A stretch of DNA of 64,000 nt from Psammoneis japonica (lineage: Eukaryota). The notes under the pieces were generated by a model, which worked only from the letters and a program-made list of their open reading frames with translations, ran no database searches and was not told the DNA's origin. The first letter of the stretch is position 1; each line of letters opens with the position of its first letter. Made by a program: the position numbers and the translations under genes. Below are positions 3,965 to 52,430 of the stretch, piece after piece. The stretch spans positions 124,001 through 188,000 of the forward strand of contig QPGO01000078.1 of NCBI GenBank assembly GCA_008632985.1, read 5' to 3'.

Positions 3965-4002
3965 ACGTCAGACAGCTTCGTGACGTCAGACAGCTTCGTG
4001 AC
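3965..4002 (+). repeat. Perfect 18-bp tandem duplication inside the TRIM
   Basis: ACGTCAGACAGCTTCGTG twice, just upstream of the purine tract. Confidence 0.9.
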
Positions 4003-4012
4003 ATATGGGGAG

Positions 4013-11290: not shown

Positions 11291-11338
11291 AGTGCACAGT
11301 CACCCAGCCAGCGCAACAAGGGGAGGAGGAGCACACAG

Positions 11339-15689: not shown

Positions 15690-15793
15690 CGTCGTCGTCG
15701 GTTTATAGTTTATAGCGTATAACTGAGAACAACACCATGTATCGGTCGACGTACATACGACGACTACGCTCACATTTTGGTCCAAATCAATGA

Positions 15794-17098: not shown

Positions 17099-17360
17099 TG
17101 CTCTAAAGTAAGTTGTGCTGTTCGATTTGATTCAAAGCGTTAGTTAGTTGCGTTCTAACCACGGAAAGGGATCAGCTAAACAGGACTCTAGCTAGAGTAG
17201 GGCCCTAGCTTGCAGGAGAATGGTTTCTATTTGTCTCTAGAGTCGCCTTCACATGTGTTGTTGGAGTGAGGCCACCGCACTCTCTAGTAGACAATGAATT
17301 CAAAACTCAACCCCTGAAAGTTGTCTCGCTAGTTGTATCATGTTACTTTTATGGCATCAT

Positions 17361-22273: not shown

Positions 22274-22815
22274 CTCGTTGTTGCGTTACAACGACGCAGG
22301 CGCTTTCGAGGTCTCGTATGTGATTGAAATAACCTTGTAGAGGGGTAAGTTGTTTCTGGTGGTAATTAAAGAGGCGTGTCGTGCAATGCTTTCAGCACTT
22401 GATGCATGGTGTCGTTTGCTCCTCGACGACCATACTTTTTCTGATTTTTATCGTGGCTGACGTGAATTGTATCTGCAATGACCCCAAATGTCTGTGACCG
22501 CACCAACCGCTGTAATGATAGCCTACAAGTATCTTTTGTTTTTATGATAAGTCATTGTTTTTCGTCTTTCAAATTTTCGGTGACATTTCAAGCTAATAGT
22601 GCTAGAAATGACTCCTCGAAGTTAGGCTTATTTCATAACAATGACTTTCGATCCGACAAATTCAAAAATCCTGTTCCGTTTTCCCGCCAAAAAATTGTCT
22701 GTCCTTCGCCCCACGCATCCACCTCTCATTCTGATCTAGCCAACCATGGCCATCAACGCAACGGCCGCATTATTTATCCTCTCATTTGTACAGTACCGTA
22801 GTACTCAGAGAGACC

Positions 22816-24376
22816 ATGTCGAAACGGCCGCGCGAAGAAGATATTGTACCAGTTTGGTGGAAAGCTGCTGTAGAGTGGATTGTCTCGAATGACGGAGTCG
22901 TGCATTCGAGCTTACATCTGGACGAAAGGAGCCGACAAATCTCAGTTGCTAGTAAACCCATATCAGGCGGCGAAACTCTGCTGGTGATTCCACAGAAATG
23001 CCTAGTTTCCTACGAATCGGTCACAAGTACTGTGTATGGAAAGCTACTCGATAGATCTTTGCAAGAAGTTGATTCCACAAAGTTATACAACACTCGACAG
23101 GATCTTGCGATTGCCCTGTTCTTGGCTTGTCACAAAACAAACAAATCATCAAAAGAGACTGCATTTTATAAACCATACCTGGATACGCTTCCAGCGAGTT
23201 CCTCATTTGACGCATTACCCAGACGTTGGTCGGATGAGCAGCTCAGCAGTCTCTTGACCGGCTCTTGTCTGTTGGATAGAGTCAAAAACGCGCAAGAGGG
23301 TGTGCGTAGCGATTACAAACTAGTGCACGAGCAATGGCAGAACCTCACTGATAATCAAGAGGTTGACTGGAAACAATTTCCATCCTTTGCCTCCTTTGAT
23401 GACATGTTGGCTGTCGTTTCTTCCCGAGCGTTTTCAAATGCTGGAGGATCTACCGAGCAAGATGTTGCGCTCGTTCCTTTGTTGGATTTGTGTAACCACC
23501 ATCGAGGAGGCCATGCCAAGAAAAACGTATCCTACAAATGTCAAGCCAATGGAGGTGTCGAGGTGGTGGCGATTGAGTCACTATCCGTTGGTGACAATCT
23601 TCGAATAACGTACGGAGCACAGGGGAATCAACAGCTTTTGTTTAATTACGGTTTTTGCATACCCAACAATCTTGAGCCTGATGGTAAGCATGGCTCCTTC
23701 TCTTTTTGATTGAGTTGTTTGCCATGTCCTGATTAACGTTTGAATCTCTCACATTGGAATAGGTTCTTCCAATGACATTCTTGAGTTTGTCGTCAAACCA
23801 GGATATCCGCCAGTGGAACTCCGCGCAGGACCAAAGTCATACACTTTTGGGGGGTTTGTAAAGGCGCTAGAATTGCATCATACCGAAGGTCGACACGAGA
23901 TTGTTGAAAACACGGCCGAAAACGATGATGATATGGAAGACTTTTTGAACGAATGCGATGCCGAGGGTGATCAATTTTGCGACTTTGGTCATGACGAGGA
24001 CGAAGGAGAAGATGATGAGGAGGGCATGACAGAAGCGTCGTCTGAACAAGCCGCAGTGCGCAACGAATTAAAGGCGCTGGACTCTCTTCGAGAAGCTCTT
24101 GAGCGAGGTCAAGGTGGCTATTCTCTCTGCGGCATAGACTTGGAGGCTGCACAAAGTGCTCGTCAGCTATCCCCACGACATTATGCGGCGATTCTTGTTT
24201 GCTCCGAGCTGAGGACTATTCGGTTGTACCTTCGTGCCATCGATTTGGTCCAGAAACAATTAAAACAAACGGAACAGCTCCCGGAGAACCCGAAGGAATT
24301 GGACGATCTGATGGAGAGCCAGGCTATTATGTTGGCTCGAGCCTTCATTGCAATTCGCTACCCTAGCCATCTTTGA
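22816..24376 (+). CDS. SET-domain protein-lysine methyltransferase (LSMT/SETD3/SETD6-like), two exons
   Basis: Motifs LVPLLDLCNH and ITYG...NQQLLFNYGF. A GT-AG intron at 23684-23762 joins EPD-GSSNDILEF in frame with the 23813-24376 ORF. Confidence 0.88.
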
Positions 24377-24394
24377 TCAACATTTGTGAATTGT

Positions 24395-27300
24395 TCATAC
24401 CAGCATGGCTATCGCTACAGATGAATCTTGATGATCGCCATGGTTTGCCGAGCCGCTGCAAACAATCATCTTTTTCAGACACTGAACGTGGCGAGCATCG
24501 GCTCCGTCTTCGGACCAAGGCTTAAACAGACGTCGTACGCCATTTATGATTGTCGCTGTCCCGCGTTCCTTGCGACAGAAATGACCAAATTTCTGAGGGA
24601 GGTCGCAGAGTAACATTTCGCTGATGCTCGCAAGGATCTCCTCAGGCAGCATGTAATAACATTCAAGGCTTTGTCGCGAGCTTATACATAGGAATGCAAG
24701 TGACAAGTCAGCGTCGTATCCATCGTCCTTCACCCAAATCGCAAGCAGCATTGCCAGAAAATGAACGCCCAATAAACGATTTGGTTCCTCCACCAACACC
24801 AACGCATCAAGAAGCAGCAGTACAATGTCATGCCGCGATGCGGCCGTAACCTCTTTCGTCGTGAACGCTATTTCAAAAGCTACCCGACGAAGAGGGTCGA
24901 CGTGGCGTTGCTCGATGGTACTTGTCAGCCGACGAGCAATCCATGCGACGGCTTTTGTGACCTCGTTTGAATTTCGACCACTCTCTTCAAAGTACCCTGA
25001 TCTGGTTAATAGCATTGTGCATGTGACTCGGAGAATATCAACTTTGACTTCCGCGTTGCCTGTTTTGAAGAAGCCAAGGGTATCAAGTTCCTCAAGCTGA
25101 AGCGCTCCAAGACACTTTGACATTGCTTCCAATAGGAGATACTGGTTGTCCTCTGCCTGTCTTCCATTCCCAACTATTTTATCACTCACGCTAGTGAATG
25201 CTGTATCAATGACAAACTTTCGGAGAAAACTCATTGTTTTTGGCGACATATGGACCTTCCTTTTCTCCGAGGTTGAGTTCGTCGAACGAAGAACCTCGCA
25301 AAGCTGTTTCAAAAACGCTGTTGCAAGCATCAGACTGGAGTCGGTATCGCATAGACGCCAGACATCTCCAAGAGCAGGCTGTACAGAATCAGTGGGAAGC
25401 TTCTGAATAACGTTTGGAAAAGCCGAGATGTAAATGGAAGCTCCGCTGACACCAACTAAGTCCAGAAAATCACGGCTAGAAACTTTCGATATTCGAAGCA
25501 CCATGTTGACAAATTCTCGGGCATCGTACGCTGCTTTCCTTCGACCCACTACCTGAGACATCAAAAGTTCTATGACAGCCGCTTTCACCTCATCTGAATC
25601 GAAACCGCTATTAATCAAGGGCTCCAGTAAAGCCTTGACAAACAGACCAGGTAGAGAAAGCGATCTCAAGGTCCGAAGCAGCCTCGGCAAGACTAGAACA
25701 GAGTGGCCTTCTGGAGACAAAGTGCTCTGTTGGACGAGATCGAGAACGCCTGAAAGGCATGTTCCGCTTTGCGCTTTAAGCATAGTGGCAACCATGGCTG
25801 CTTTTGAACGTTTACTTGATTTCCCTTGATCAGAGGAAAAGTCAATATGATGCGTGGAGGGACTCTTCATTGATGATGCTAGTGCAATGGCTGTAATACT
25901 TGCTTCTCGCTCTCTGACTCCGTTTGAATTGTGTAGAAGGTCCACCATTGCCTTGGTAATGTCTGCAACACTACCTTCTTGAGTTGTTGGATAAAGCCGC
26001 GCTGGATCACAAAATGCGTGGGGTCCAGCGCCTAAACAGGGGATAGAGCCAAGTAGTGACACGGCACCAACAAGAACGGAAAGAGAATCGCCTACGCCGA
26101 AGCGCCCTGCACTCTCGACCAGCAAAGAAAAAGAAGTCGGATCCTTGATCCCGCCATTCAAGCGTGTAACAGAACTTATGCAATAGAACGCGTCCCCGAT
26201 GGCATTGCTGCCGTTCCCCTCCGTTACATGATCTAAAATGTCCTGACAGTCTCGTATAACCTGCTGTATATCTTCTTCACTCAAGAGTTCCAGTGATTGG
26301 CAGGCCGATACAACAGGAGGGAGTGCAAATCCTTTTCCGACGCCGCACCATGGAAGCGCCCGTAATAGCCGATACGATGCGAGAAGTAGATCGGGATCCA
26401 CGACGCGTAACGCCGGCAAAGCAACCGCCATGGCGACGCAAATTGACTTCACTTTCTGGCGAGAGCTATCGCTTACAACTAGCGATGAGTCTTCGACGGT
26501 TTCTACTGCATCCTTGAGGTTCGGAGAAGCCTTTCCACTTTTGATGCAGGCGACAAGGTCAAGAAACACCGACCTGGACGGCTCAATGGTGGATAGGAGC
26601 GAATCAACCAGTGTGCCCGTTATGACTGATATCAGTTTTTTGGCAGTCTCGGTATCACTTAACGTCGACGCTCCAGGCGTCGTGGCAGCTCCGGGTAATG
26701 CCTGTGTAATCAACGCCAAACCATAGGAAGCACCACCAGTCCCCCGGCCACCGAGACCTTGCATTGCCTTCGTCAGCAGGTGCACTTTTGTCGTTACGTG
26801 GCCCATGGAGCGACTGAACGCAGCTCTCGCCCCGAGCAAGCCGACACAAATATGAGCTATGTCCTTGTTCTCGAATGACTGGTGGTCGTTGGCATCCTCA
26901 ACAACACTATTTATCGTTTCAAATAAATCCGTCAATTGGTCTGGGAGAAAGAGAGAAACTGATGCCATAGCCAAATACGCATGATCGGGTGCTCCAAGCA
27001 TTTCACTCCATTCTTGTACATCTCTGATTAGATTCGTCAACACTTCGCGATTATTTGAATCGCCCGTTTGTTCCAACATCGACCACACTTTGCCCATCGC
27101 GTGAAGCCAAGCCTGGACCATCAACGCAAGAGAAACTCCATCTGAGGAGTCGTTTGAGATGTCATTTGCTAGCTCAAATAGCTCCGTTGTGACTTCGTTG
27201 AGTTGTCTCTTTTGACCACCGGCAAGCTGTCCGCAATCGAAACACAGCAACGACGCAATTGCAGAAACGGTGCCAGGGCTATCATTGTGGTACTTGGTTA

Positions 27301-29869
27301 CAAGGGATGGCGAAGGAAGTGCAGTGAGAGCGGATTTCTGAGAGCGGACCTTCTTTGACTTTCCCTTCGATTCGGACACAACTTTTCCACCCTTTTGCCA
27401 GAGAGTATGTCCGAGGACTTCCTCTTCGTATGATATGAGCTTTCTAGCTAAGTCAGCAGCAGCGTCTGGATCCTCTGAGTTGTTGTCACCACCACTGTTA
27501 TTGGATGCCGTGCTCACATCTTGGACACCGCCCAAAATAAGATTTGTCAATACAATGTATCGGTTTGGCGTTGATGCCTTGGACGACGAGTCACCAGTGG
27601 TCTCCGAAATAGACAACGCAGCACGCACTGCATCCTCGTCGACTCCAAGGGCATATAACGAGTAGTTCGACAGTGATTTGTACAGATTGTGGCGTATTCG
27701 ACCTTTAGCCTCTTTTGAATATGTCGTGGTGGTTCCCTCAAATGCTAGTGCAGGAGACAGGCCGAGATCCAGAAGCAATTGAATAGAAGCAGAGACCTGT
27801 GGCGATAAAGCTGGAGCCTCCAAAGCCTGCGACGTCTCGTTGTCGCTATCAATGATACTTTCCGTTCCATCAGATTCTCCGTCTCCGAGTAGAAGAACCA
27901 ACGCCTCCAGACCTACATCAGGTAGACCAAGAATTTCCGTCAAGTCTGTAACTTGACATAACCTCTTGTTCAGCACCTTGATCACAAGGTTGTAATCCAA
28001 CTCCTCGGCAACAATCAGGTGATGCAGACTCATGATTGCATAGTAGACCACAGATGAGTTCTCGTCTGCCAAAAAGGTTTGTATCCACCCAATGACATCG
28101 GAAACATCGCGAATACGATCTTCTTCCGCAAGCTCTGCAATCGTGGCCGCAACAGCTAGCCGCACCTCAGGCTCGGAAGAGGTTGCCGCAACTCCCAAGG
28201 AATCCACGACACGACGGTACAGTTTCTTATTTCTGCGGCACATCTGAGGATAGAGACGAATTACGGAACTCCTCAAGACGGTTGTTTCGTCTTGCATCAA
28301 TTTGACGCCTACAATGTTCCATACTCCTTGTGCGCACTGCGGCTCGAGAACCAAAAAGTCGCACAAATACTCTAGCCAACGCAACAGCTCGCGGCCGTCT
28401 TTGTGACAAGACGAATGGACGGATTCCACGAGAACAGGTAGCAACGTGATTCCGAGTCGAGGAAACTGTTGAAGGATCAGTCGCAGAAATTCTTCACTTG
28501 CTGCCTTTATTCCTGAACTGCTGCTATACAATAGTGACATTGCCATTAGTAAAGCTGCATTCTGTTTCAAAGGAGACAGAACGAGACCTTCGGATGCTGT
28601 AGGCGTGATCACCCGTATGATCCGATCAGTATTCTCTGAATGCTTTTCAAAGAGCTGGATCAAATTCGTAGCACATTCTCCATCCAGCCCGACGGTTTGT
28701 GACAATGCTTTCATCCGGGAAACTTGTTTGAAAAGATTCGGAGGAGTGCCATTGCTTCGATTGACGCATTCCAAAAGTTGCAGCATGGGACGGATCAAGT
28801 CCCAAGCGCTGGCCGCAACTTGACACTTGGAAATCAGTACGGCAATACCAGAGGCATCGTCCGGAAGGGGCGTTGACAATGCAAGCGTTATCAGTTTGAA
28901 TATTATGGCGGGCTCCACTGTCGAATCTATTTTCGGAGAATCCAGAATCTCAACCAGACGATCAAGAATGGAAGTCAATTCGATGCGATACGAGATAGAG
29001 AAAAAGTGTGGAAGAATGTCTCGTAGAATGCCTTGAACAATAGCCGAGATTGAATTCCCCAACTCCTCAGTCACATCTTTCGTGATCAAATGGCCCAACA
29101 CGTCTGTCAGCTGCTGCAACCATCGGTAGGCAATCTCGGAAGCAATTGCCAAGCGCTGTTTATCTCCGGAAGTTCTCCAGAGAAAAAATCGGAGTGACGT
29201 TTGCATCCAAGAAATAAAATGGACAATTCCATCTATTGATTGGTTGGCACGGCTGAATGACCGGCACTTTTGCCATATCAAGTCCAAAAAGAGCGACAAT
29301 TCCTGCGTAGACGACGAAGCTGACATGATACTGGCGGCCATGATGGGTGATAAGAGTAACCTTGCAGAACCAAAATCACGACCCGACGTTTCCACAAAAT
29401 TTCGAACCAAGCATAATCGAGAGCCTGGTACCTTTAGCTTGTGAAATAATTCTGCAATCCCTTCTTCCACCAACGTGGTTCTGACGACTTGTTTGTGTGC
29501 AATCACCGCGTAGGCATGAATAATTGCCGAGAGAGTTTCGAAAGTGTCACTCTCTTGTTCAAATATCATTAAATCGCACCGACAGATCCATTGACTCAAG
29601 GTTTCCAATGACACTTCACCACTAGAAGAGATAACATTGAAATAGGCATGCGGCACGGCTGGATTAACCTGTTTCGAGAGTAGAGACTCCAAAATCTCGT
29701 CTCCAACCGCAGTATCATCATCTTGGATAGACACAAACGACGTTCCGAGACGCCTTCCAAGCGCTGCACTGGATTGATCTGGAGGCTGATCTAAACATGA
29801 TTCGCCTGTTTGGCGATTCAGTCGTTTCAGCAGAGAATCAATCTCGTCCCTGCCTCCGCGACGTGCCAT
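24395..29869 (-). CDS. Large helical ARM/HEAT-like protein, possibly focadhesin/RST1-like
   Basis: ORF of >1800 aa with likely ATG at 29869 (MARRGGRD); Leu-rich helical repeats. EVRLAVAATIAELA resembles the DUF3730 region. The family call is tentative. Confidence 0.6.
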   Translation of the reverse strand: MARRGGRDEIDSLLKRLNRQTGESCLDQPPDQSSAALGRRLGTSFVSIQDDDTAVGDEILESLLSKQVNPAVPHAYFNVISSSGEVSLETLSQWICRCDLMIFEQESDTFETLSAIIHAYAVIAHKQVVRTTLVEEGIAELFHKLKVPGSRLCLVRNFVETSGRDFGSARLLLSPIMAASIMSASSSTQELSLFLDLIWQKCRSFSRANQSIDGIVHFISWMQTSLRFFLWRTSGDKQRLAIASEIAYRWLQQLTDVLGHLITKDVTEELGNSISAIVQGILRDILPHFFSISYRIELTSILDRLVEILDSPKIDSTVEPAIIFKLITLALSTPLPDDASGIAVLISKCQVAASAWDLIRPMLQLLECVNRSNGTPPNLFKQVSRMKALSQTVGLDGECATNLIQLFEKHSENTDRIIRVITPTASEGLVLSPLKQNAALLMAMSLLYSSSSGIKAASEEFLRLILQQFPRLGITLLPVLVESVHSSCHKDGRELLRWLEYLCDFLVLEPQCAQGVWNIVGVKLMQDETTVLRSSVIRLYPQMCRRNKKLYRRVVDSLGVAATSSEPEVRLAVAATIAELAEEDRIRDVSDVIGWIQTFLADENSSVVYYAIMSLHHLIVAEELDYNLVIKVLNKRLCQVTDLTEILGLPDVGLEALVLLLGDGESDGTESIIDSDNETSQALEAPALSPQVSASIQLLLDLGLSPALAFEGTTTTYSKEAKGRIRHNLYKSLSNYSLYALGVDEDAVRAALSISETTGDSSSKASTPNRYIVLTNLILGGVQDVSTASNNSGGDNNSEDPDAAADLARKLISYEEEVLGHTLWQKGGKVVSESKGKSKKVRSQKSALTALPSPSLVTKYHNDSPGTVSAIASLLCFDCGQLAGGQKRQLNEVTTELFELANDISNDSSDGVSLALMVQAWLHAMGKVWSMLEQTGDSNNREVLTNLIRDVQEWSEMLGAPDHAYLAMASVSLFLPDQLTDLFETINSVVEDANDHQSFENKDIAHICVGLLGARAAFSRSMGHVTTKVHLLTKAMQGLGGRGTGGASYGLALITQALPGAATTPGASTLSDTETAKKLISVITGTLVDSLLSTIEPSRSVFLDLVACIKSGKASPNLKDAVETVEDSSLVVSDSSRQKVKSICVAMAVALPALRVVDPDLLLASYRLLRALPWCGVGKGFALPPVVSACQSLELLSEEDIQQVIRDCQDILDHVTEGNGSNAIGDAFYCISSVTRLNGGIKDPTSFSLLVESAGRFGVGDSLSVLVGAVSLLGSIPCLGAGPHAFCDPARLYPTTQEGSVADITKAMVDLLHNSNGVREREASITAIALASSMKSPSTHHIDFSSDQGKSSKRSKAAMVATMLKAQSGTCLSGVLDLVQQSTLSPEGHSVLVLPRLLRTLRSLSLPGLFVKALLEPLINSGFDSDEVKAAVIELLMSQVVGRRKAAYDAREFVNMVLRISKVSSRDFLDLVGVSGASIYISAFPNVIQKLPTDSVQPALGDVWRLCDTDSSLMLATAFLKQLCEVLRSTNSTSEKRKVHMSPKTMSFLRKFVIDTAFTSVSDKIVGNGRQAEDNQYLLLEAMSKCLGALQLEELDTLGFFKTGNAEVKVDILRVTCTMLLTRSGYFEESGRNSNEVTKAVAWIARRLTSTIEQRHVDPLRRVAFEIAFTTKEVTAASRHDIVLLLLDALVLVEEPNRLLGVHFLAMLLAIWVKDDGYDADLSLAFLCISSRQSLECYYMLPEEILASISEMLLCDLPQKFGHFCRKERGTATIINGVRRLFKPWSEDGADARHVQCLKKMIVCSGSANHGDHQDSSVAIAMLV

Positions 29870-30682
29870 GGTGAAGTGCATGCCGCCGAATCCAGAATAA
29901 TTGAAATGCGCGTCCTGCGTCCTGCGTCCATAATTTTCAATTTGGTGAGAACGTGTTGGATTATTGAAAAATAACTTTGATTTGGTCATATTTCGCCAGA
30001 CTTTACAAAAACACATTATTTCCCGTGCAAAAAGCGCCTTTTTATCATAGAGGGTATGTTTTTGACGTACCTAGTAGAAACGGCGGCAGTTTCTGAAATC
30101 AACGCTTGAACATCAGCGACCATGGCCGTCGCCGCCGAAAAGTGCATTATCGATTATGTGTTGATACCGTTGGACCTGCTGTTGTCAACCCAAAATCTGA
30201 TTCATAATGAAAACCAATGAAAATATTCTCTGCACCCGAAATGTGTTTCTTCATTCTCACATTCTCAGTGAGTGCATGCAGCTCGGTATTTGCGATAGTG
30301 ACGGACTCTATTGATTAAATGTATTTTTTTGTTTTCTCAACTTCTTGTTTTGCTTTGTGTGGCGGATGCAGTTGACGCCATCATGTCAAACAGGGCGGCT
30401 CAATAAGTGCACTGTGTCATGCTGTGCGGAGTGGCTCAAGCAGATACCAATATTGAATGTTATATGGAGTGGTCCAAGGGTGAGGAGTATTCTTTTTCTT
30501 AATCTACGATCTACCGCTTTTGGGAAAGTCCCGAAATAAAGGGCAGACGAGGTTGCTCTCGTCTCTAATTATTACGAGCAACTACTGAGGTTGCTGACTG
30601 CAGCAGCGCCTCGGTAATTTTTTCTGCACGACGGCCTACAAGAGCCAAAGGGTGGTTCCCCGGCGAGACTGAGAGTGGTACC

Positions 30683-30973
30683 TGCCGAATATCACGGTCA
30701 TCTATATTCATTCGTATATTCATTCGTGGGTGTCAACCTGGTGTCAAAAGTGTCAAAAGGATGTCAACGATGACACTTTCTAGAAACCTCTTCTCCTTTC
30801 TCGATACATCTCGATGCCTCTCGAAAGATTGTTTCTTTATATTTCTACGCGGTTTCTTAGTATTAATTCTACGAGATTTCGGAGTAGCCGAATCTCTTTC
30901 ATTTCTTCTCACAACATTAGCAACAGTCAACTTTACAACGCTACTTTATACTGTTACTTGGCGCCACTTGGCA
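30683..30973 (+). repeat. Gypsy 5' LTR (291 bp)
   Basis: Matches 35292-35583 apart from 4 substitutions and a 1-bp indel. Confidence 0.97.
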
Positions 30974-31046
30974 TAGTAAATTTACTCCCAAACACTTATT
31001 CATCTCTCTTGAGATATATCTACCGATCATATTGTCCTGACCAGAC

Positions 31047-34000
31047 ATGTCAGCAGAAAACTGCCCATTCGAACTCAAGCGTCCTGACCGCTCTGAGGAA
31101 GAGCGGCGCAAAGACCAATTCGTGTCTTTTGAAAGCCCCATTGATCCTGACGATCCAGATGGGCTTAAAACTACGATCGAGGTACGTAAGTTAGCTTCAA
31201 CTGAACCGGAAGATGTTCTTACCTTCTGGTCAAACTTCGATGAACTTGTCAACGATCTCGGCACGGCTGAAGGACAGCCACGTTTCCGGCTCGTGACCAG
31301 ACTTATGACCGGAACACCAAAAGACGACTGGGAAATCGTCGTAGACGATTACGAAAACCGCGACCAAGTTACATTCGATACTTGTCGTGAAGAATTTCTA
31401 CTCCAATGCATGGATGGAGAAATTGCCCTTGATGCCAAGGAATGGCTTCAAAGCCTTGAGAAACCCAGGAACCAAACTGTCAAGTCATTTGTTAATGACA
31501 TCCGTCGCTTTAATAAGTTGATTAATATCATGCCTACGCCAACCGAAGATGACGCCGAAAGAGTTCCGTCATTCACGGAAGCGGAATTATCCGTAATCCT
31601 TCGAAAATGTGGACCAAGATCATGGGCCGAAACTCAGACTAAAGCCCGTCTTCGCAACTTAAACTTGAACGACCAAGCTCAATGCTACGAGACTCTCCGA
31701 CGTATGGAACGACGTGGTGACAAAGGGTCTACCGACAACAACAGACGCAATGACAATGGGAATCAACGCAACAACGGTCGATGTGCGCGTCGCGGTCAGA
31801 ACAACGACCAAAATCGCGACACCAGGAACAGGAATCAAAACAATCGTGAACAAACATGTCCAATCCATGGCGTTGTACATCCGAACGGTCAAGAGTGCAA
31901 TATCATCCGTCGTGAACGTGAAAATTATGAGCGGAACCGCGCAAATCGGAATGCGCCGAATCAACAAAACAACTCTCGAAACGAGCCGACACACCGCTGT
32001 CCTACACGGAGCCGCACACGGAACGTCGAAAACAATAATGTGGACTCCAAAGCCAGTCGCTCCGCTTCTAACGATGTCGACAGCGTCGCGTCAGACGATG
32101 TCAACGACATTTTTGAAGACGTCACGTCTCTTCTAGACGATTCCATCGAATCCGAAATAGAAGACAATCTTACCACGGAAGCGCGTGTCCAGATGATTGA
32201 CACTCATTCTGGAATGCACAAGTTCCGTGTTGCTCTACTCGATACCGGCGCAAATCGCAATTTTGTGAAGCGCTCAGCCCTTCGCGGGATTCCTCACAAA
32301 ATCCGTAAATGTAACGTTCCCGTTAAAGGCCGTTACAGTGCCGTTAATCTACACGAGATTGCGACGCTGACATTGAAGTTCCCAGATTTCGCATCGTCCA
32401 AGAAGGTTTCCGTCGATGCTCATGTGGAAGACAAAGCCGTAGGAAAACACGACATTATCATCGGAAGAAAAACCGCCACAGAAATGGGACTCGTTTTTGA
32501 TTTTCGACATCAAACAATCACGTGGGACGATGTTACCCTATCCATGCGATCCAAGGGCTCTTTCGACCAAGTCGAAGTTAATGCAATTCATCCCGGCGAT
32601 GCTGAATTACCCAAGTTCTTCCAGAATGCCGTCAACCGTCAGGTTCGAGGTATGACGAGCAATACGTGCGACAAGCACAATTATCGCGACATGGTTCTAC
32701 GCTGCAAACACCTTGATAACGATCAACAGCACCAACTCATCGAACTCTTCGGACGATACCCGCAATTATTCGATGGCACACTTGGAGCTGTACCCGGTAA
32801 ACCCGTCCATTTGACCCTGAAACCAGGATCGCGTCCACACTGTGCGAAAGCTTACACTATTCCGCAAGCGTTATATCCCATGGCTCGCAAAGAAGTGGAT
32901 GAATTGGAAAAAATCGATGTCATTACGCGCAAACTTCACTCTCCTTGGGGCGCACCCTGTCTTTTCCGATCGAAGAAAAGCGGTGGTATCCGTTTCTTAT
33001 CCGATTTACGGAAACTCAACGAGTGTCTCGAACGGCATCCATATCCACTACCTGTTGTCGACGACGTCGTATGGAAAATGAACGGCTTTACCTGTGCGAC
33101 ATGTTTGGACCTCAACCGAGGCTACCATCACTTCGTGCTTGACGACGAGTCAAAAAAACTCTGCGGTGTCATCCTGCCGTGGGGCAAGCATTGCCACAAC
33201 CGCCTACCGCAAGGAATCAAACCGGCAAGCGATATTTTTCAAGCTTACATGACAGACATTTTTCATGATGTGGAAGATGTCATAGTCCACATCGACAACA
33301 TCATCCTTTTTACCAAGAACAACTTCAACCATCACTGTCAACGACTCGAACTCGTCTTGCAACGGCTCCTCGCGAACAATCTTCACGTACATGTCGAAGA
33401 ATCCTATCTCGCCGCCAAGACCGTCGACTACTTAGGCCACACCATGACTGCAAAAGGTGTTCAGCCTCAGAAAAAGAAAATCCCACCCTCACTTCGCTTC
33501 GCTCGCCCTCAAAACCGTCGACAATTACGTGGTTTCATCGGGTTCGTGAATTATTACAAGAAATTGTGGTACCGACGCAGCCACACTCTTACGCCCTTAA
33601 CTGCGCTGTCATCAGACAAAGTCAAATTCAAGTGGACTGACGTCCACACGGAAGCTTTCAATCAGATGAAAAAAATTGTGGCGCGCGAAATCCTCCTCCG
33701 ATTCCCCGACTTCTCTCAACCTTTCAACATCTATCCGGATGCGAGTGATTATCAACTTGGTGCAGTAATTACTCAAGATTTTGACGATGGCGAATGGCCA
33801 ATTGCATTCTACAGCCGAAAATTATCTCAAGCGCAACGAAACTATACGACAATGGAAAAAGAGCTACTGTCGCTCGTCGAAACGACCGAAAATTTCAAAA
33901 GCATCCTTTTTGGTCATCGATGCTACCTATTTACCGATCACAAAAATCTTACATTTGACAAATTCAAGTCAGAACGCGTCAAACGCTGGCGTTTACTTCT

Positions 34001-35270
34001 CGAGGAATACGATTGCTCTTTCGAGCACCTGCCAGGCCATAAGAATGTCGTGGCTGATTTTTTGAGTCGCTATCCTGTTGTCCAAGTCGATCAAAGCGAT
34101 TACGAGGAAATGACTTCGTTGGAAATCGATCCTTCAATATTCCCCGTTACTTTCGATATTATCGCCGACTGTCAGAAAAAAGATTCTGCTCTTCAGCAAC
34201 GACTCAACAAGTCCGAATCCTACTCAGCCGAACTGTTCAACGGAAAACAGATTATCCTTTACAAGAACAAGATTGTCCTCCCTCCAACGCTTTTTCCTGC
34301 AGTTCTACGGTGGTGCCATGAAACTCTCTGCCATCCTGGTGCTAATCGCACCTGCCAAACTTTGGCTTCACATTTTTACATTCGCGACATGCAGACGAAA
34401 GTCCGTACTTTTGTCCGTAAGTGCCGCACGTGTTCCAAATCCAAGCGTACTACGGCAAACTATGGCGAATTACCTCTTCCAGATACTACTTATAAACCTT
34501 GGCAGGCAACTCAAGTCGATCTTTTCGGTCCCTGGACGTGTGCCGATAAAAATGGTGTCGATCGCAAAATCAGAGCCGTTTCAATTATTGATGTCGCAAC
34601 CCGTTGGGTCGAACTCGCGAACTATAAGTCCAAAACGTCCGAAGACATTTCACTTATCGTCGATCGCGAGTGGTTTTGTCGCTATCCGCGACCAGAAATT
34701 GTCATTTATGACAACGGTTCCGAATTCACTTCCGAATTTACAGATCTCCTCTACAGTTATGGTGTTAAACCGAAACCTACAACAATCAAGAATCCTCAAG
34801 CCAACGCGTTCGTTGAACGTATTCATCAAGTGATAGCCGATTCTCTCCGTGCGATGGATCTCCCTTCTCGTGATCATGATGAAGACACAATTCATGGAAT
34901 TTTGCAATCCGTTGCATGGGCCTTACGCAGTACCTACCATACTGCCCTTATGTCGTCTCCCGGACAAATTGTCTTCGGTCGAGACATGGTCATTTCTGCT
35001 ACTTATCTTGCGAACTGGAAAATGATTAATACCCGTCGCAAGCGCGATGTCCTACGCAATAATCTCCGCGAAAACGCAAAACGTCTTACTTACGACTACA
35101 ACATCGGCGATCAAGTCTTCGTTATGACCAAAGACATCCAACGCAAACTCAACACCAAAGATGGTCCTTTCCGTATCGTACGTGTCCATACCAATGGAAC
35201 CGTTACCATCCAGCGCTCGCCTCACGTCACTGAACGTATCAATATCCGCCGTCTTCACCCTGTCTTCTAA
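31047..35270 (+). CDS. Gag-Pol polyprotein (open frame, but RT active site mutated)
   Basis: Zn knuckle CPIHGVVH...C; protease LLDTGA; RT LDLNRGY / RLPQG / HIDN (expected YxDD); RNase H DASDYQLG / EKELL / TDHKNL; integrase H-H-C-C, VDLFGP, YDNGSEF, ANAFVER, GPF. Confidence 0.95.
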   Translation: MSAENCPFELKRPDRSEEERRKDQFVSFESPIDPDDPDGLKTTIEVRKLASTEPEDVLTFWSNFDELVNDLGTAEGQPRFRLVTRLMTGTPKDDWEIVVDDYENRDQVTFDTCREEFLLQCMDGEIALDAKEWLQSLEKPRNQTVKSFVNDIRRFNKLINIMPTPTEDDAERVPSFTEAELSVILRKCGPRSWAETQTKARLRNLNLNDQAQCYETLRRMERRGDKGSTDNNRRNDNGNQRNNGRCARRGQNNDQNRDTRNRNQNNREQTCPIHGVVHPNGQECNIIRRERENYERNRANRNAPNQQNNSRNEPTHRCPTRSRTRNVENNNVDSKASRSASNDVDSVASDDVNDIFEDVTSLLDDSIESEIEDNLTTEARVQMIDTHSGMHKFRVALLDTGANRNFVKRSALRGIPHKIRKCNVPVKGRYSAVNLHEIATLTLKFPDFASSKKVSVDAHVEDKAVGKHDIIIGRKTATEMGLVFDFRHQTITWDDVTLSMRSKGSFDQVEVNAIHPGDAELPKFFQNAVNRQVRGMTSNTCDKHNYRDMVLRCKHLDNDQQHQLIELFGRYPQLFDGTLGAVPGKPVHLTLKPGSRPHCAKAYTIPQALYPMARKEVDELEKIDVITRKLHSPWGAPCLFRSKKSGGIRFLSDLRKLNECLERHPYPLPVVDDVVWKMNGFTCATCLDLNRGYHHFVLDDESKKLCGVILPWGKHCHNRLPQGIKPASDIFQAYMTDIFHDVEDVIVHIDNIILFTKNNFNHHCQRLELVLQRLLANNLHVHVEESYLAAKTVDYLGHTMTAKGVQPQKKKIPPSLRFARPQNRRQLRGFIGFVNYYKKLWYRRSHTLTPLTALSSDKVKFKWTDVHTEAFNQMKKIVAREILLRFPDFSQPFNIYPDASDYQLGAVITQDFDDGEWPIAFYSRKLSQAQRNYTTMEKELLSLVETTENFKSILFGHRCYLFTDHKNLTFDKFKSERVKRWRLLLEEYDCSFEHLPGHKNVVADFLSRYPVVQVDQSDYEEMTSLEIDPSIFPVTFDIIADCQKKDSALQQRLNKSESYSAELFNGKQIILYKNKIVLPPTLFPAVLRWCHETLCHPGANRTCQTLASHFYIRDMQTKVRTFVRKCRTCSKSKRTTANYGELPLPDTTYKPWQATQVDLFGPWTCADKNGVDRKIRAVSIIDVATRWVELANYKSKTSEDISLIVDREWFCRYPRPEIVIYDNGSEFTSEFTDLLYSYGVKPKPTTIKNPQANAFVERIHQVIADSLRAMDLPSRDHDEDTIHGILQSVAWALRSTYHTALMSSPGQIVFGRDMVISATYLANWKMINTRRKRDVLRNNLRENAKRLTYDYNIGDQVFVMTKDIQRKLNTKDGPFRIVRVHTNGTVTIQRSPHVTERINIRRLHPVF

Positions 35271-35291
35271 CGTCTCAATTGGGGAAGCGAG

Positions 35292-35583
35292 TGCCGAATA
35301 TCACGGTCATCTATATTCATTCGTATATTCATTCGTGGGTGTCAACCTGGTGTCAAAAGTGTCAAAAGGATGTCAACGATGACACTTTCTAGAAACCTCT
35401 TCTCCTTTCTCGATACATCTCGATGCCTCTCGAAAGATTGTTTCTTTATATTTCTACGCGGTTTCTTAGTATTAATTCTACGAGATTTCGGAGTAGCCGA
35501 ATCTCTTTCATTTCTTCTCACAATGTTAGCAACAGTCAACTTTACAAACGCTACTTTATACTATTGCTTGGCGCCACTTGGCA
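35292..35583 (+). repeat. Gypsy 3' LTR (292 bp)
   Basis: Direct repeat of 30683-30973, preceded by the PPT. Confidence 0.97.
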
Positions 35584-36866
35584 GTGCCTCCAAGGAAGGG
35601 GGTCCCACTCGACGTGCTATGACCCGAATCTCTGTTAGATAGGGTTCGCCTGCCCTCAAAGGTGGTTTGGATTGTGGATTGTTTGTTCTCTTGATTGGGA
35701 TCGTTCTTTTTTTAGTGACAACTACGTAATGAGAGAACTAAAGGCATAGGATAATAAAATAATGAAGAACAATTGCTATTAACCCAACCTCGGCAACTGC
35801 ATTGTAAATACTACTAGCACTGCTAGTACTGTTGCAATAGAATGATAAAATAGCCGGATTAAATTGATCTAATGTAAGGTTATTGAAAAGCTTGGATGGT
35901 CGTTCGTAGTAGCGCTTCTAGATGCCTCTCCTCTTCTATGCGCTTTTCCATCTTCTTGTGCTTGCGCACCTTCTGACAAAGTCGATCTTGCGTAATGCCG
36001 TCAACTAATCCAATGTCGTCGTGTTGGTCAACGAAACGGGCGAGTGGTGAGGAGTGAGCCAGGCAAGCAAAGGCGCACTGATGAAGACTCTGCCGCGATC
36101 CACCAGTCTTTTTGCATGAGGTCCAAGCTTTTTTTGCAATCGCGTCACACACCTTAGCAGTGCTGCGTCCTGCTTGAGGTGACGCTCTCCAGCAATCAGA
36201 GGGGCTTGAGAGGACTCTCCATCCCAAGGTGGGACTTTTTGGCGCGCACTGGGTCAAAAGTCGGCCCGATCAGTCTGGATTGGCAACACGGCGTTTCTGA
36301 TTGGCTCAATCACAAATGACTTGTGTGGGAGAATGAATTCTTGATCCGGGGTGGGCGATGACCACAAGAACTGCATGTCGGCACGCCTCACAGAAAATCT
36401 GTGGCAAAGGAAACAAAACGGCTTACAGTGCGATCATACAATGTGACTTATGCCTTCGATTTGTCGTAGTGAAAATTGTCCAGTTCACGGATAATGCCAA
36501 ATTCTGGTCATCACAAAAAGAATCAGTGTGTGAGAAAGAACCCAAAAGCAGACATAAATGCCACTTCCACATCAGATTACATGATCGTACACAACAATTG
36601 TCTGGAAGCTTTCTAATTAAAAAGTCTTTGAAATGTCCGTTGAAATAATTGTTGTCGTGATTCCGGTCATTAAAAAGTAGTGTTGTGACAAAGAGTCCAT
36701 CGTAAGATTCTACGAATCCCCCGTAAGACATTTTCACTTAAGCATCGGCCTACTGCAACCCTCACAAAACGAAAAACAAGAATCGAGTCTCTGCTCTAGC
36801 CACTGTTGAGTCTCATCCACTAAAGGCTCACAAAATAGGATCGAGCCAAATCTCGAACAAGAAAAG

Positions 36867-39065
36867 ATGAAAATCATTTGCAAGGGTGTTTCTCTCCTTC
36901 TTGCTTTTGCTCTTTGCGATGCTGCTGGTACGTGCGTTGCTACAAGGCAAATCGTGCTTGGGCGACAGAGCCATTTCGATGAGACAAGAGCGGCTAACAA
37001 ATTTGCATCTTTTTATCTTCTATTCTTCCTCAGACCTGATGACGAAGCCGGGACTTAGGGATGGTGCTTCTCAAAAGGTAAGCAACAACACCGTCCCGGT
37101 GGTGTTCATTCCCTTTCGTCGGTCGTTCTGACACTTCTGCTCGTTCGGTGAAAACTTTCACCTCTGTTCTCGAAGGACGTCGTCAGCCCTAACGCTGAAG
37201 TTGAGTCCGACAGGTTGCTTGGTGTAAGTAAATAAACGATTTCATGCCGTTTAGCTAGAAACTTCTTCGTCATTTTCTAAAACATCCGAATCGCTCGAAC
37301 GTCTTTCAGCATTACTTTCCTGCTGAGGGGGCGTGCTGTGAAGCTGAGCATGGTCAACCTAAATGTACGGTCGCACAGAAACGTGATTGTCAAGGTCGAG
37401 GCGGCCACTACGTTGGAGACGGAAGCAGCTGCAGACCTAACAAGTGTGCAAACGTCCCACGTCCAACGCCACCAACTACGCCGAGTCCTCCGACACCGAC
37501 GTTGGATGGAAAGGAGGGAGCATGCTGCTTGAGGTTCCGGCAGGTCTTGTCTTGGTGAATAAGAATCACTGTCTTCCTATTTTAACCTCAATGCTTTGCC
37601 ACCTTGCTTTGCAAAAATCACATTTTGTGTTTCCAGGGATCGATGCTTTGTTGTTTCGGCAGCCATTTGCCAGGTTAAGAACGGAATTTACCACGGGGAC
37701 GGCACGGTAAGATTCGTCACTATTGTGAGCACAGAATGAACATGCATGAGTAGATCTTGCAATAACCCCTTTCATTCTTTCTTCTTGTTTTCAGACCTGC
37801 ATTTCCGGTGGTTGTAGGACCAGGGGCGCATGTTGCTTGGGTTCTGGTGAATGCCTCCCCTTTGAAAAGAAAAAGACGTGCCAAAGGGCGCTCGGTGGCA
37901 CCTTCCAAGGAGTCGGCACAACTTGTCAGGACGGAGTGTGCCGTGTTACTCCTCCTTCTGGTCCTGGCACTCCGCCATCTGGACCTGGTATGCCTCCGTC
38001 TGGACCTGGTGCTCCTCCTTCTGGTCCTGGTACTCCGCCGTCTGGTCCTGGAACTCCTCCGTCCGGTCCTGGAACTCCTCCGTCCGGTCCTGGTACTCCC
38101 CCGTCGGTCCTGGTACTCCTCCGTCTGGTCCTGGTACTCCCCCTTCTGGCCCGGGTACTCCTCCTTCACCCACGCCGCCCTCTCCGCAAGAGGGAGCTTG
38201 CTGCTTGCCCTTCGGAAACAGGAATTGCGATGTTCTTTCCGAAAAAGACTGCACTCGTCAGGGTGGAGCATACCTCAGAGATGGCAAGATGTGCGCTGCT
38301 ACAAGATGCTCAAGGCAAGGAGCCTGTTGTCGTGACAATGGCACTTGTGGTAGGACGACATTGTCTGGATGCGACAATGGAGTCTTTCAGGGTCGCGGTA
38401 GTGAATGCGAAGATGAGAATGGCTTAACTATTTGTCCAACGCCGGCTCCCACTCCGTCTCCCACGCCTGATCCCACCCCCTCTCCCACGCCTGATCCTAC
38501 GCCTTCTCCCACGGCTGCTCCTACACCTGCTCCAACGGGAGCATGCTGCGTGCCGTTCGGACGGAACACGTGCGAAGTTCTCTCCAGGGCAGACTGCGCT
38601 CTTGAAGGAGGAGTGTACCAGGGAGATAATAAGGCATGCCAAAGGACACGCTGTCCAAGGCGTGGAGCTTGCTGCCTTGAAGATGGCAATTGCTTCTTGA
38701 GCCCCTTGGCTGGTTGCAACAATGGCAAAGTCTTTCAGGGTCGCGGCACTGAATGCCAAGACGTCACCGGTGCACCTGTGTGTCCGGCGGGCCCACCCAC
38801 GGTTCAAGTGGGCCGCTGCTGCCTTCCCAACGGCGATTGTGATGTAACCACCCCCACAGAATGCAATGATCAGTTCGGCGTGTATCAGGGAGCCGGTACT
38901 ACGTGCGGTGGTGCAGATGATCGCTGCAGCGAAAAAGGAAGTTGCTGTGTGGATTTCAAACCATTCTGTATTGACGTCAACGTTGCGGTTTGCAAGAAGA
39001 AGCGCGGTGACTTCCAGGAAGATACCGTTTGCTTTGACACCCGTTGGTGTCCCGGTGAGGCCTAG
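36867..39065 (+). CDS. Secreted Cys-rich GACC-repeat protein with Pro-rich linkers; multi-exon, apparent 1-bp frameshift at ~38105
   Basis: Signal peptide MKIICKGVSLLLAFALCDAA. Predicted GT-AG introns 36928-37033, 37078-37175 and 37224-37309, plus two more at ~37555-37636 and ~37707-37794. Repeated GACC-x-C-x-C-x-GG-x-Y/FQG-x-G-x-C modules; TAG at 39063-39065. Confidence 0.75.
37948..38160 (+). repeat. 21-bp coding tandem repeat (TPPSGPG) x ~10
   Basis: actcctccgtctggtcctggt-like units; the unit at ~38095-38115 is one base short. Confidence 0.92.
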
Positions 39066-40399
39066 GCTTGGAGACGCCAGTGGCCGTGATCGTAATTCGT
39101 AATACGAGTGTTTGTTTTAGTGAGGACATGTGACTGAAGAACAAGAACAAGCCAGTGATGTAATGCCACCATGACACCTCTGTATAATCGCAAAAGTCCG
39201 AGCCCCTCAGCAAGAAGAAGAAGTAAACAGGGCTTGGATCCAATTAAAAAAAAAAATAGTGTCCATGTTTTGTGAATGTTGCGCAAGCAGTTATTGTACC
39301 GAAGCAGTTTCATCGCCTCAACTGTTTCAGAATAATCCACTCACGACCACATGATGATGCAAATTCAAGGCACCAGAACAACTGTTCCAACTGTCTAAAA
39401 AGTCATCATGAACGGCCGCCGTCCACAAGGGTTTGGTCGCAGATCAATCTCATCTTTGATCTTTGCCGCCTCTCTCCACACTCCTGCGCTTCTTTTCCTT
39501 GCACCACCATCCAACTTGGGGGATTCCCTCAAGTGCTCAACAGCACTTTTTGGGATCGCTCAGATCTTGCCGCGGCTCTGTTGACAAGCGCGTGGATGGT
39601 CAGCATGCCAAGTCCCAAGCAAACGGGTGTCACTGCGTGCTTGGCCATGATGCCAACAAGTGCCTTTTGCCATGATTTCAACCCTCTGGGCCATGTGTGT
39701 GCCTGCAACAACCACTTTTCGACTTTTTGATTTGTCCAGGGGGGGGGGGGGGGGGGGCGGTCACTGTGCTGTGAAGCACCTGCACATGTGCAAGCTTTTG
39801 AGTCCATGCAAGCATGTGCTGCCACACCCTCAGCCAACAAGCAGACACAAGCTGTTGAGAAAATGTCCCCATCACAAGGCATCAAAGAGCTCAAATTCAT
39901 GGGCAAACATGGAGACAATCTGCACAATGCTGGCTGGACTGCAGGAGTGAACAAAACATTGACAGCAACAGCCAAAGCAAAAAGGAAGATGAAGATGAAA
40001 ACAAACATGACAGTGCCAACTGTGTGAGCAAGTCAGAAGATGAAAATCATGAAAAAGAACTGGCTCAAATGACAAACATGAAAAAGCAAACAAGATCCCA
40101 TCCAACTAAAAATCAAGCCCCCCCCCCCCCCAATGAACAGCACAAGTTTGAGAACCAAAAAGTCAAGGAAGAAGATTTTGAGCTTCATGAAAAAAACAAA
40201 GAGACTGAAGAAGATGATGGATCCAAAAAGACAAGAGGTGGGAAGGAGACAGATTGGAGGAACAGACAAGAGCCACATCTGGTGGAGTGGCCAGGAAAAG
40301 TGCATCGTTCAACATCAAATCATGCAAACACATGGAGGGGAAGTTTGATTTGCATGTGGCCTGGGACAGCCCAGACACTGTCAAAACAGAATGAGAGCA

Positions 40400-51700: not shown

Positions 51701-52430
51701 CAATGGACAACCCGGGTTTCCTGCTGCCAGAGGTTGACCCCAAGTCCACCGGTTGTTGAAGTGGGCCGCTGCTGCCTTCCCAATGGCAATTGTGATGCAA
51801 CCACTCCTGCAAAATGCAATGATCAGTCCAGTGTGTGTCAGGGAGCCATCACCATGTGTGGTGGTGCCAATGATCACTGCAGCAAGAAAGGAAGTTGCTG
51901 TGTGGGTTTCAAACTGTTCTGCATTGACATCAACATTGCAGCTTGCAAAAAGAAGCAAGGCAACTTCCAGGAAGACACCGCATGCTTTGACACCCATTGG
52001 TGTCCAGGTGAGGCCTGGGCTTGGAGACGCCAAGTGATTGTGATCACAATTTGTGGTGCAAGTGCTTGTTTTGGCAAGGACATGCAAATCTCAATCCAGT
52101 GAATGCCACCATGATGCCTCTGTGTTGTTGCACCAGTCCAAGCCCCTCTGCAAGAAGAAGATGAAGCAAGTGGGGCTTGGGTCCAACTGCAAAAAAAAAA
52201 CAGTGTCCATGTTTTGTGAATGTTGTGCAAGCAGTGGGTGCACCACAGCTGTTTCATTCATTGCCTCAGTTTTTCATTGGCATGACTGCCTGACCTTTTT
52301 TCAGAGACCCCAGAACAATCCACTGTCACAACAACATGATGGAACATGATGACACCAATTCAATCAAGTCACCAGAGCCACCAAGTGTCTTTGAGTCACC
52401 ATGAATGGCCGGCAGCCACAGGGGTTGCAT
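48760..52430 (+). pseudogene. Decayed paralogue of the Cys-rich gene locus (~36245-39430), including upstream region and introns
   Basis: Colinear with the intact locus: ATGAAGATCATTTGCAAGGGTG at 49366, GACCLEDGNCFLSPLAGCNNGKVFQGRGTECQD retained, stop read through at 52016. It carries extra modules at ~50985-51240 and ~51590-51740. Confidence 0.93.

Follow-up and report, generated by a model that had tools for sequence, protein, structure and literature searches.

TpA-directed A:T>G:C transitions in a Ty3/gypsy retrotransposon of a Y-x-D-N clade and in other DNA of the same window from Psammoneis japonica

Several processes are known that mutate repeated DNA. Fungal repeat-induced point mutation (RIP) converts C to T at CpA (G to A at TpG), and in so doing raises TpA, creates stop codons and hits both copies of a duplication. 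Endogenous retroviruses of vertebrates that have been edited by APOBEC enzymes arrive already mutated, and the ADAR deaminases have a 5' neighbour preference for U. An example of ADAR-/APOBEC-type hypermutation fixed in retroelements was reportedly given by Knisbacher and Levanon in 2015. To our knowledge, the known forms of repeat-directed mutagenesis (RIP, methyl-CpG decay and APOBEC) all act in the direction G:C>A:T. Here we describe a stretch of 64,000 nt from Psammoneis japonica (contig QPGO01000078.1, positions 124,001 to 188,000; hereafter the window), which contains a single copy of a Ty3/gypsy long terminal repeat (LTR) retrotransposon. In this element A:T>G:C transitions at TpA, on both strands, have replaced conserved tyrosines of the polyprotein, and the same loss of TpA is found in paralogues in the window that are not transposable elements (TEs).

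The locus resembles the known systems in part. Like fungal RIP it has transitions that are densely packed and tied to a dinucleotide, on both strands of repeated or duplicated DNA, as well as skewed tracts with sharp limits and transposons apparently inactivated by point mutation, but the direction is mirrored: the process seen in the window destroys TpA (TA>CA/TG), makes no stops and leaves G+C at ~47-48%. As in methyl-CpG decay, a self-complementary YpR step is turned into TpG and CpA in a ratio of about 50:50 in long tracts; methyl-CpG decay, however, leaves the loss of TpA unexplained and is absent from the element. ADAR/APOBEC hypermutation likewise leaves a host deaminase footprint frozen in integrated LTR elements, but here the strands are equal, the TpA context is strict and DNA outside retroelements is converted too.

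The original prediction for this element held that its pol region had been inactivated by Tyr>His/Cys and Asp>Asn missense changes while the reading frame stayed open. The frame is indeed open, from stop to stop over 31041-35270, and encodes 1407 amino acids from the ATG at 31047. It was compared with the 12 closest relatives in a clade alignment of 13 members including the window copy, in which a column counted as conserved if 90% or more of the other 12 have one and the same residue. At ten of the 28 conserved-tyrosine columns the window copy reads His (six) or Cys (four), while the 12 relatives together do so in 2 of 312 instances (Fisher p 1.6e-10), and none of the 23 conserved His/Cys columns of the window copy has become Tyr. 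The ten changes are derived, through TA>CA or TA>TG transitions, and with ten changes one way and none the other their direction is polarised without paralogues, as had been proposed. The codons are listed below by first base; at each, at least 90% of the 12 relatives have Tyr.

31683-34316, plus strand: span of the ten Tyr>His/Cys codons in the clade alignment
31683, plus strand: C215, Tyr>Cys
32667, plus strand: C543, Tyr>Cys
33126, plus strand: H696, Tyr>His
33189, plus strand: H717, Tyr>His
33195, plus strand: H719, Tyr>His
33288, plus strand: H750, Tyr>His, in motif C of the reverse transcriptase (RT)
33438, plus strand: H800, Tyr>His
34014, plus strand: C992, Tyr>Cys
34026, plus strand: H996, Tyr>His
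34314, plus strand: C1092, Tyr>Cys

The protein strings that had been read as marking lost tyrosines are all present in the translation, and those at 696, 717, 719, 750, 800, 992, 996 and 1092 fall in columns with 90% Tyr or more; C215 and C543 are additional to the sites then named. The string FTCAT does not belong with them. In a residue survey of 433 proteins aligned to aa 680-810, 76 at 55% identity or more and 357 below, its site 685 varies between Phe and Tyr (F 32, Y 17, C 1 and 26 uncovered among the 76 close proteins). The hits are unevenly spread along the open reading frame (ORF), affecting five of the seven conserved tyrosines at aa 695-800 and none of the eight past aa 1092 (seven kept, one Phe). 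The total number of private changes is ordinary (77 in the window copy, 78 in P0011 and 55 in P0005); it is the spectrum that stands out. Histidine occurs at Tyr 717, 719 and 750 in 0, 4 and 5, respectively, of the 357 more distant sequences. Judged from these residues the RT of the window copy is probably crippled, and annotation based on ORFs would label the copy intact, as the original prediction had warned. We note that five fragmentary relatives from other samples (P0389, P0380, P0401, P0412 and P0418) show sporadic single Tyr>His/Cys changes at the same RT positions, and that P0389, alone among the relatives, reads HIDN at motif C.

The sequence context of the changes is narrow. One-step private changes comprise nine A>G, seven T>C and three G>A, with no unambiguous C>T, and 14 of the 16 polarised A:T>G:C changes lie at TpA. 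These 14 are the ten Tyr codons together with T132A, I710V, I807V and I1242V, in each of which the first codon base is preceded by a codon-final T. Within the Tyr codons the strands contribute similarly (six T>C, four A>G). The element thus records a TpA-specific, directional and strand-symmetric A:T>G:C process. CpG decay is absent from it: of 39 conserved Arg columns the window copy has kept CGN at 33, none of these 33 conserved CGN codons has changed to His, Cys, Gln or Trp (p 1.5e-4 against Tyr), and rho(CpG) is 1.40.

None of the known processes reproduces this spectrum. For RIP, C>T at CpA would be expected, but there are 16 A:T>G:C changes against three G:C>A:T, none of the 23 His/Cys columns has gone to Tyr and no stop has arisen in 1407 codons, although of the 1996 G:C>A:T transitions that this ORF allows, 117 would create one. 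APOBEC editing predicts G>A on the plus strand, and G>A accounts for three of the 19 polarised single-step transitions. ADAR editing predicts clustered A>G on the transcribed strand only; seven T>C stand beside nine A>G, and non-retroelement DNA is converted as well. Methyl-CpG decay fails for the element (rho 1.40; 0/33), while the long tracts described below do show it.

Protein searches found no paralogue nearer than 64% over the RT and RNase H (RH) region, or 71% over a short piece, and the copy-by-copy comparison therefore rested on contigs of run X1, from the same organism. Contig pieces were compared with 30000-36300 of the window at 80% likeness or more; 952 pieces were found, which indicates a multi-copy family. 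X1 appears to consist of accurate-read data, judging from a longest contig of 315 kb, a depth of ~62 in single-copy sequence and the match of a 9.3-kb contig to the flank with no differences. It contains 0.61 of the sampled words of 29500-37000; a further run, X2, covers eight of 30 bins, chiefly LTRs and flanks, a third, X3, had no contig matching the region, and no RNA run was listed as containing it. Variable places in X1 comprise 607 transitions and 145 transversions, compared with ~2:1 in 20 control pairs of related TEs from metagenomes, and the family-wide strand split is 181 versus 196. The site-by-site reading covers the 40 of 759 variable places that are listed. Among these, 33 single element transitions divide into 18 TA<>CA/TG, eight CpG-type and seven others; the TA-type share (18/33) exceeds the 25-26% of transitions in the control pairs (binomial p 5e-4).

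At position 33288, T (Tyr) is read in 14 X1 contigs with 967 of a total depth of 1002, and the C of the window copy has a depth of ~35. Tyr750 is therefore the family norm, with His at about the depth of one copy; that recently transposed copies might share HIDN, the outcome named beforehand as fatal to the original prediction, is contradicted at this codon. The same kind of Tyr change is present in other copies of the family. Among the places listed, other copies carry Cys at aa 904 and His at the invariant Tyr 1215, at both of which the window copy has kept Tyr. At aa 696 other copies have Cys (TGT) where the window copy has CAT, and at aa 800 three loose contig ends have Cys where the window copy has CAC. 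In each case a single change leads from a TAY ancestor to the CAY of one copy, and another single change to the TGY of the other.

The element itself is a structurally complete and fairly young copy of this multi-copy Ty3/gypsy family in a diatom-like genome. Its parts are as follows.

30683-35583, plus strand: complete LTR retrotransposon (LTRs, near-perfect target-site duplication, domain order)
30678-30682, plus strand: left target-site duplication (TSD) GTACC; the right one is GTGCC at 35584-35588, four of five bases matching
30683-30973, plus strand: 5' LTR, 291 nt, TG...CA ends, direct repeat with 35292-35583
31047-35270, plus strand: single gag-pol ORF, 1407 aa from ATG
32235-32252, plus strand: protease active-site motif LLDTGA, aa 399-404, read from the translation
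32973-33443, plus strand: reverse transcriptase, aa 645-801 (RVT_1, PF00078, 56.9 bits, E 3.1e-15)
33633-34010, plus strand: RNase H, aa 865-990 (PF17919, RT_RNaseH_2, aa 865-960; PF17917, RT_RNaseH, aa 890-990)
34281-34796, plus strand: integrase, with Integrase_H2C2 at aa 1081-1136 (PF17921) and rve at aa 1153-1252 (PF00665)
35281-35291, plus strand: purine-rich tract GGGGAAGCGAG, a polypurine tract by eye, directly before the 3' LTR
35292-35583, plus strand: 3' LTR, 292 nt, direct repeat with the 5' LTR

The LTRs are 98.288% identical over 292 columns, with four transitions and one single-base indel, and the TSD mismatch is TA (left) versus TG (right). Placement in Ty3/gypsy is by homology and architecture: the LTRs have TG...CA ends and a short TSD, and pol has the order protease (PR), RT, RNase H, integrase (IN) according to Pfam, the protease being recognized by LLDTGA alone as Pfam protease models gave no match on the ORF at E 0.01. 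RT motif C departs from the Y-x-D-D of the group, reading HIDN in this copy and YIDN in its clade, and is regarded as a clade variant. No primer-binding site complementary to a tRNA was recognized after 30973, and ARAGORN calls no tRNA gene in the window. The clade-invariant Asp690 of RT motif A and Asp752 of motif C are retained, as are H1093, H1098, C1128, C1131, D1160 and D1224 of the integrase. The usual gag zinc knuckle has the form CCHC; we note that the one found here (31857 onward, aa 273-286) reads C-x2-H-x4-H-x5-C, where the clade consensus is C-x2-H-x4-H-x4-C.

The nearest proteins, at 55-59% identity over aa 560-1400, come from marine metagenomes and run assemblies, and the more distant named matches are from diatoms (Mayamaea at 40%, a Ditylum fragment and a culture transcript). 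In having relatives in diatom transcriptomes and marine metagenomes the element agrees with diatom Ty3/gypsy. The excerpts of Maumus et al. (2009; PMC2806351) describe diatom GyDi elements of this type with TG...CA LTRs, a 5-bp TSD and a single gag-pol frame in the order PR-RT-RH-IN, a likeness by description and not by sequence; those excerpts were not found to mention a Y-x-D-N variant such as replaces Y-x-D-D in the present clade.

The flanks of the element (~30270-30682 and 35584-35900) are themselves multi-copy in X1, with a summed depth of 730-1100 against 62 in the adjacent unique contig, and at least three X1 contigs join 30677 to 35584 without the element. The multi-copy flanks and element-free joins imply that the element is nested in an older repeat or that the insertion is polymorphic. 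We considered the joined contigs as the empty site of a hemizygous insertion, but dropped this since the flanks are multi-copy and three different contigs join them.

Motif C was the centrepiece of the original prediction, which took HIDN to be a damaged YIDD with one TA>CA and one CG>CA change.

33288-33299, plus strand: RT motif C, HIDN (CAC ATC GAC AAC); clade norm YIDN

The letters are as then described and TA>CA at the tyrosine is borne out, but the Asp>Asn half of the proposal fails. No variation occurs at I751, D752 or N753 among the 13 aligned members, and the Asn, written AAC or AAT in the relatives, is clade-wide and no product of CG>CA in this copy. An alignment of 21 sequences shows YIDN in all 12 closest relatives and Y[L/I/M]DD in eight more distant ones. 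Among the 76 proteins of at least 55% identity the fourth position is Asn in 73 and Asp in none, the motif being YIDN in 61, FIDN in four, YVDN in two, YTDH in two and HIDN, YIHN, -IDN, YTDN, YINN, YMYN and YIDK in one each. The 341 proteins below 45% identity have YLDD (149), YIDD (139) and otherwise xxDD or rarer forms. Of the 78 loci in a metagenome set, 11 matched a short motif query; the ten close ones read YIDN (eight), FIDN (one) and NIDN (one), and the distant one YIDD. In a tree of the RT-RH region (MAFFT and FastTree; 93 tips, comprising all 22 proteins of at least 50% identity, 70 picked at random from the 317 others, and the window copy), 17 of 18 xxDN tips fall in one clade with support 1.0, of which the window copy is the first branch. 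As Asn is invariant across the relatives, the normal motif of the clade is YIDN and not YIDD, and on these alignments the Asn is the ancestral clade state and not a lesion of the window copy.

Asparagine at the fourth position presumably works in this clade, which looks from its sequences to have active members: the ORFs of two relatives, L001 (1440 aa) and L002 (1444 aa), are intact and read YIDN, with terminal overlaps that are 100% identical, a culture transcript reads YLDN and a Ditylum protein reads YIDN. There is a laboratory counterpart in Ty1. According to Pandey, Patel and Gabriel (2008; PMC2148107), the D211N mutant of Ty1 RT, in which the second Asp of YXDD is replaced by Asn, retains polymerase activity in vitro, with a kpol that is 223-fold lower and a preference for Mn; the mutant element transposes only together with RNase H suppressor mutations, and similar flexibility is cited there for Ty3 RT. 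Both cases replace the second Asp by Asn with polymerase activity kept in the Ty1 example, but D211N is a laboratory mutant, whereas in the present clade the Asn is natural and occurs in intact and transcribed members. A literature search for the whole word YIDN with 'reverse transcriptase' found no paper.

Loss of TpA extends to other DNA of the window. The tracts concerned are listed here without strand, except for the paralogue.

39650-64000: long tract nearly without TpA and CpG, reaching the end of the window; TA loss begins at ~39397
48768-52257, plus strand: converted paralogue of 36246-39313 at 77-79% identity; the source region has normal composition
10880-12757: second converted tract, TA 4, CG 17; paralogue of 15738-16117 and 10259-10997
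2767-3522: third converted tract, TA 1, CG 14; TA/CG low again over 4231-4500
3505-4230: small unconverted LTR-type insertion with TSD GGGCA and normal TA and CG, interrupting the third tract

The 24351 nt of the long tract contain 59 TA, 127 CG and 5619 CA+TG, compared with 600, 971 and 2419 in the 17000 nt of the comparison region 13001-30000. In every 2-kb bin of 40001-64000, rho(TA) is 0.01-0.06, rho(CG) 0.04-0.18 and rho(CA/TG) 1.7-2.0. In the small tracts and at the left edge of the large one the loss of TA is more complete than that of CG. We note a run of ~21 G at 39740-39760 and one of 14 C at 40118-40132, just inside this left edge.

The paralogues give the direction of conversion. 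Of 89 TA in the normal copy, the copy at 48768-52257 has CA at 37 and TG at 31 and has kept four; for the 175 CG the figures are 68, 55 and 20. At the protein level six of eight tyrosines have changed (four to His, two to Cys), and 11 of 28 arginines have become His, Trp, Cys or Gln. Two further paralogue pairs show the same TA/CG pattern. Conversion of non-TE paralogues within the window is thus observed directly, and in the pair formed by 36246-39313 and 48768-52257 conversion is confined to the second copy, contrary to RIP, in which both copies are hit. The source is a Cys-rich, Pro-rich gene region with a 399-aa ORF at 37866-39065 that matches no Pfam family; in the converted copy the Cys pattern is mostly kept and the aligned part has a single stop. 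Searches of the long tract added little: 30 ORFs of 39.6-64 kb matched no Pfam family, and tblastn of 11 window ORFs against the tract returned the Cys-rich gene (37866-39062) as sole match. In the 78 metagenome loci no TA/CG-free tract was found, the minimum of TA+CG per 500 nt being 20. Ten window proteins, three of them host genes serving as positive controls, had no exact match in the protein collection, controls included.

Two features bear on the age of the conversion. The insertion at 3505-4230, bounded by 225-nt direct repeats (3505-3729 and 4006-4230, 97.3% alike, TG...CA ends), is unconverted within a converted tract. A 265-nt tandem pair in the large tract has nearly all CA/TG states in common, with two swaps, from which it follows that conversion predates the duplication. 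Together these make the conversion look historical, and not a property of how the region was read out. The choice between CA and TG is weakly clustered (82 runs versus 95 expected, P 0.03) and only partly set by flanking bases, which decides neither for processivity nor for an artefact. A tRNA-like T-arm string is seen by eye in the 3505-4230 repeats, where ARAGORN calls no tRNA.

We consider it rather probable that a strand-symmetric TpA>CpA/TpG process of the host, operating at the DNA level, explains the tyrosine losses. Such a process would act at the self-complementary TpA step, where A:T>G:C transitions on either strand would turn TA into TG or CA; combined with CpG>TpG/CpA decay it would have brought the older tracts of the window near to saturation. 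Among sense codons TA occupies positions 1-2 in the TAY family alone, which makes Tyr>His/Cys the visible protein footprint of such changes, and since A>G and T>C cannot make TAA, TAG or TGA from a sense codon the frame stays open however many hits occur. The agent would probably act on chromosomal duplex DNA at this palindromic step, directed at silenced or repeated DNA, and candidates are the deamination at TpA of adenine, modified or not, and the mispairing of a modified thymine. A more specific scheme, which we hold tentatively and at somewhat below even confidence, combines a dedicated system that erases TpA in silenced or repeated DNA, as a mirror of fungal RIP, that cripples transposon proteins through Tyr>His/Cys with no stop codon made, and that with CpG decay yields TpA/CpG-free tracts of tens of kilobases, with a whole diatom Ty3/gypsy clade that replicates with a natural Y-x-D-N motif. 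Under that scheme the agent might be a duplex-DNA adenine or N6-methyladenine deaminase, or a thymine-modifying enzyme whose product mispairs with G.

Several observations weigh against a DNA-level host process as the cause of the tyrosine losses. Tyr codons have been hit more often (10/28) than TpA sites in the LTRs (~4/40; p 0.015 with 40 sites assumed), so that many hits may be older than the insertion or may have arisen in retrotransposition, whether because a source that was mutated beforehand was mobilized in trans or because of editing. If the joined contig reading GTGCC is the true empty site, the TSD difference GTACC versus GTGCC is a change TG>TA. The comparison with other copies covers three of the ten codons among the places listed. 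His is natural at 696 (19/357) and 800 (72/357) in Ty3/gypsy elements below 55% identity, which makes it weak evidence of damage there, and at these two sites it may be harmless; the tip of the window copy in the tree is not long, so that the copy is not generally degenerate. The element has TA hits without CpG hits and the tracts have both, and the causes may differ. Finally, no such TpA process was found in the literature searched, nor any description of TA/CG>CA/TG tracts or of the YIDN motif, most subscription journals lying outside its scope.

The excess of hits in Tyr codons over LTR sites, which fits hits before LTR duplication, is one argument for editing during retrotransposition, in which a 5'-U/T-preferring adenosine deaminase (ADAR- or ADAT/TadA-like) edits RNA and/or single-stranded cDNA and copies arrive mutated. 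A>G and T>C changes with a 5' T, the mid-pol cluster (five of seven at aa 695-800, none past aa 1092) and the presence of His750 at about one copy's depth agree with this explanation. Editing of genomic RNA alone would give A>G only, however, and the strands are nearly equal both in the Tyr codons (6 T>C, 4 A>G) and across the family (181 versus 196); moreover, TA>CA/TG occurs in non-TE paralogues and long tracts outside reverse transcription, and the LTR differences, which arose after integration, are of the same type. We regard it as unlikely. Somewhat less likely still is an assembly or base-calling artefact, whereby heavily modified TpA and CpG are misread and the changes and tracts are absent from the DNA. 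Misreading at modified sites may affect the long tracts in particular: the region at 39.4-64 kb is known from the assembly sequence alone, and the ~50:50 split of CA and TG is just what would result if a palindromic site were misread and its strands mixed in the consensus. X1, with its 0.61 of the sampled words, also leaves many listed places at which no contig has the window's letter. Yet X1 looks like accurate-read data, with its zero-difference flank contig, and itself shows TA<>CA/TG polymorphism among copies, including the window's C at 33288 at a depth of ~35. The element retains CpG (rho 1.40; 0/33 Arg codons), contrary to misreading of methyl-CpG; intact host ORFs of 1269 and 1891 aa argue that the assembly is not a raw noisy-read consensus, and neither the unconverted insertion with its TSD inside a converted tract nor the common states of the tandem pair suits an artefact.

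The copy might instead be functional, and its His and Cys residues a feature that an active sub-lineage tolerates or was selected for; the open frame, LTRs 98.3% alike, the retention of all catalytic Asp, Glu, His and Cys, a tree tip that is not long, the natural His at 696 and 800 in other lineages and the HIDN of P0389 speak for this. We judge it very improbable, as ten independent hits of one type fall at clade-conserved residues, His at 717, 719 and 750 is rare or absent in distant sequences (0, 4 and 5 of 357), and other copies have Tyr at 750 and are changed at different tyrosines, which fits a mutation process and not a selected lineage. Ordinary point-mutation decay of a dead copy, the original prediction taken in full, in which TA>CA and CpG>CpA would have cost YIDD its Tyr as well as its second Asp, is likewise very improbable. 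GAC>AAC after the codon ATC would fall in a CpG context, and the window does contain CpG>CpA/TpG conversion at other places, but for the Asn this explanation is refuted by the clade (Asn in 13/13 members, Asp in 0/76 close proteins). The element is without CpG decay and its spectrum is one-directional and TpA-specific, where the controls show transitions and transversions at ~2:1 and 25-26% TA-type; it also lacks the stops and frameshifts that degenerate metagenome relatives have (longest ORF 232-573 aa in nine of 11 loci). A host process acting on DNA at TpA thus remains the reading that we prefer.

Some other features of the window were noted. A tandem array at 19899-21188 consists of 11.3 copies of a 114-nt unit with 87% matches; it lies inside a minus-strand ORF (19172-22285), encodes a 38-aa repeat and matches no Pfam family. 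An ORF on the minus strand at 2-2356, open at the window edge, contains the end of a subtilase (Peptidase_S8) domain and a Hint module. A host gene with an RNB domain is also present.

If the Y-x-D-N clade replicates as its intact members suggest, the second aspartate of the RT motif would be dispensable in nature, for which previously there were only laboratory mutants of yeast elements; its enzymes may need Mn or carry compensating changes. Should the TpA process prove real, it would represent a novel form of mutagenesis in the genome defence of a eukaryote, with both its specificity (TpA) and its direction (A:T>G:C) new, and would imply a natural activity that deaminates adenine or modifies thymine in DNA, of relevance to epigenetics and base editing. 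The elements that it hits keep long frames and near-identical LTRs while losing conserved tyrosines, and criteria based on ORFs and LTRs would accordingly over-count active elements in such genomes.

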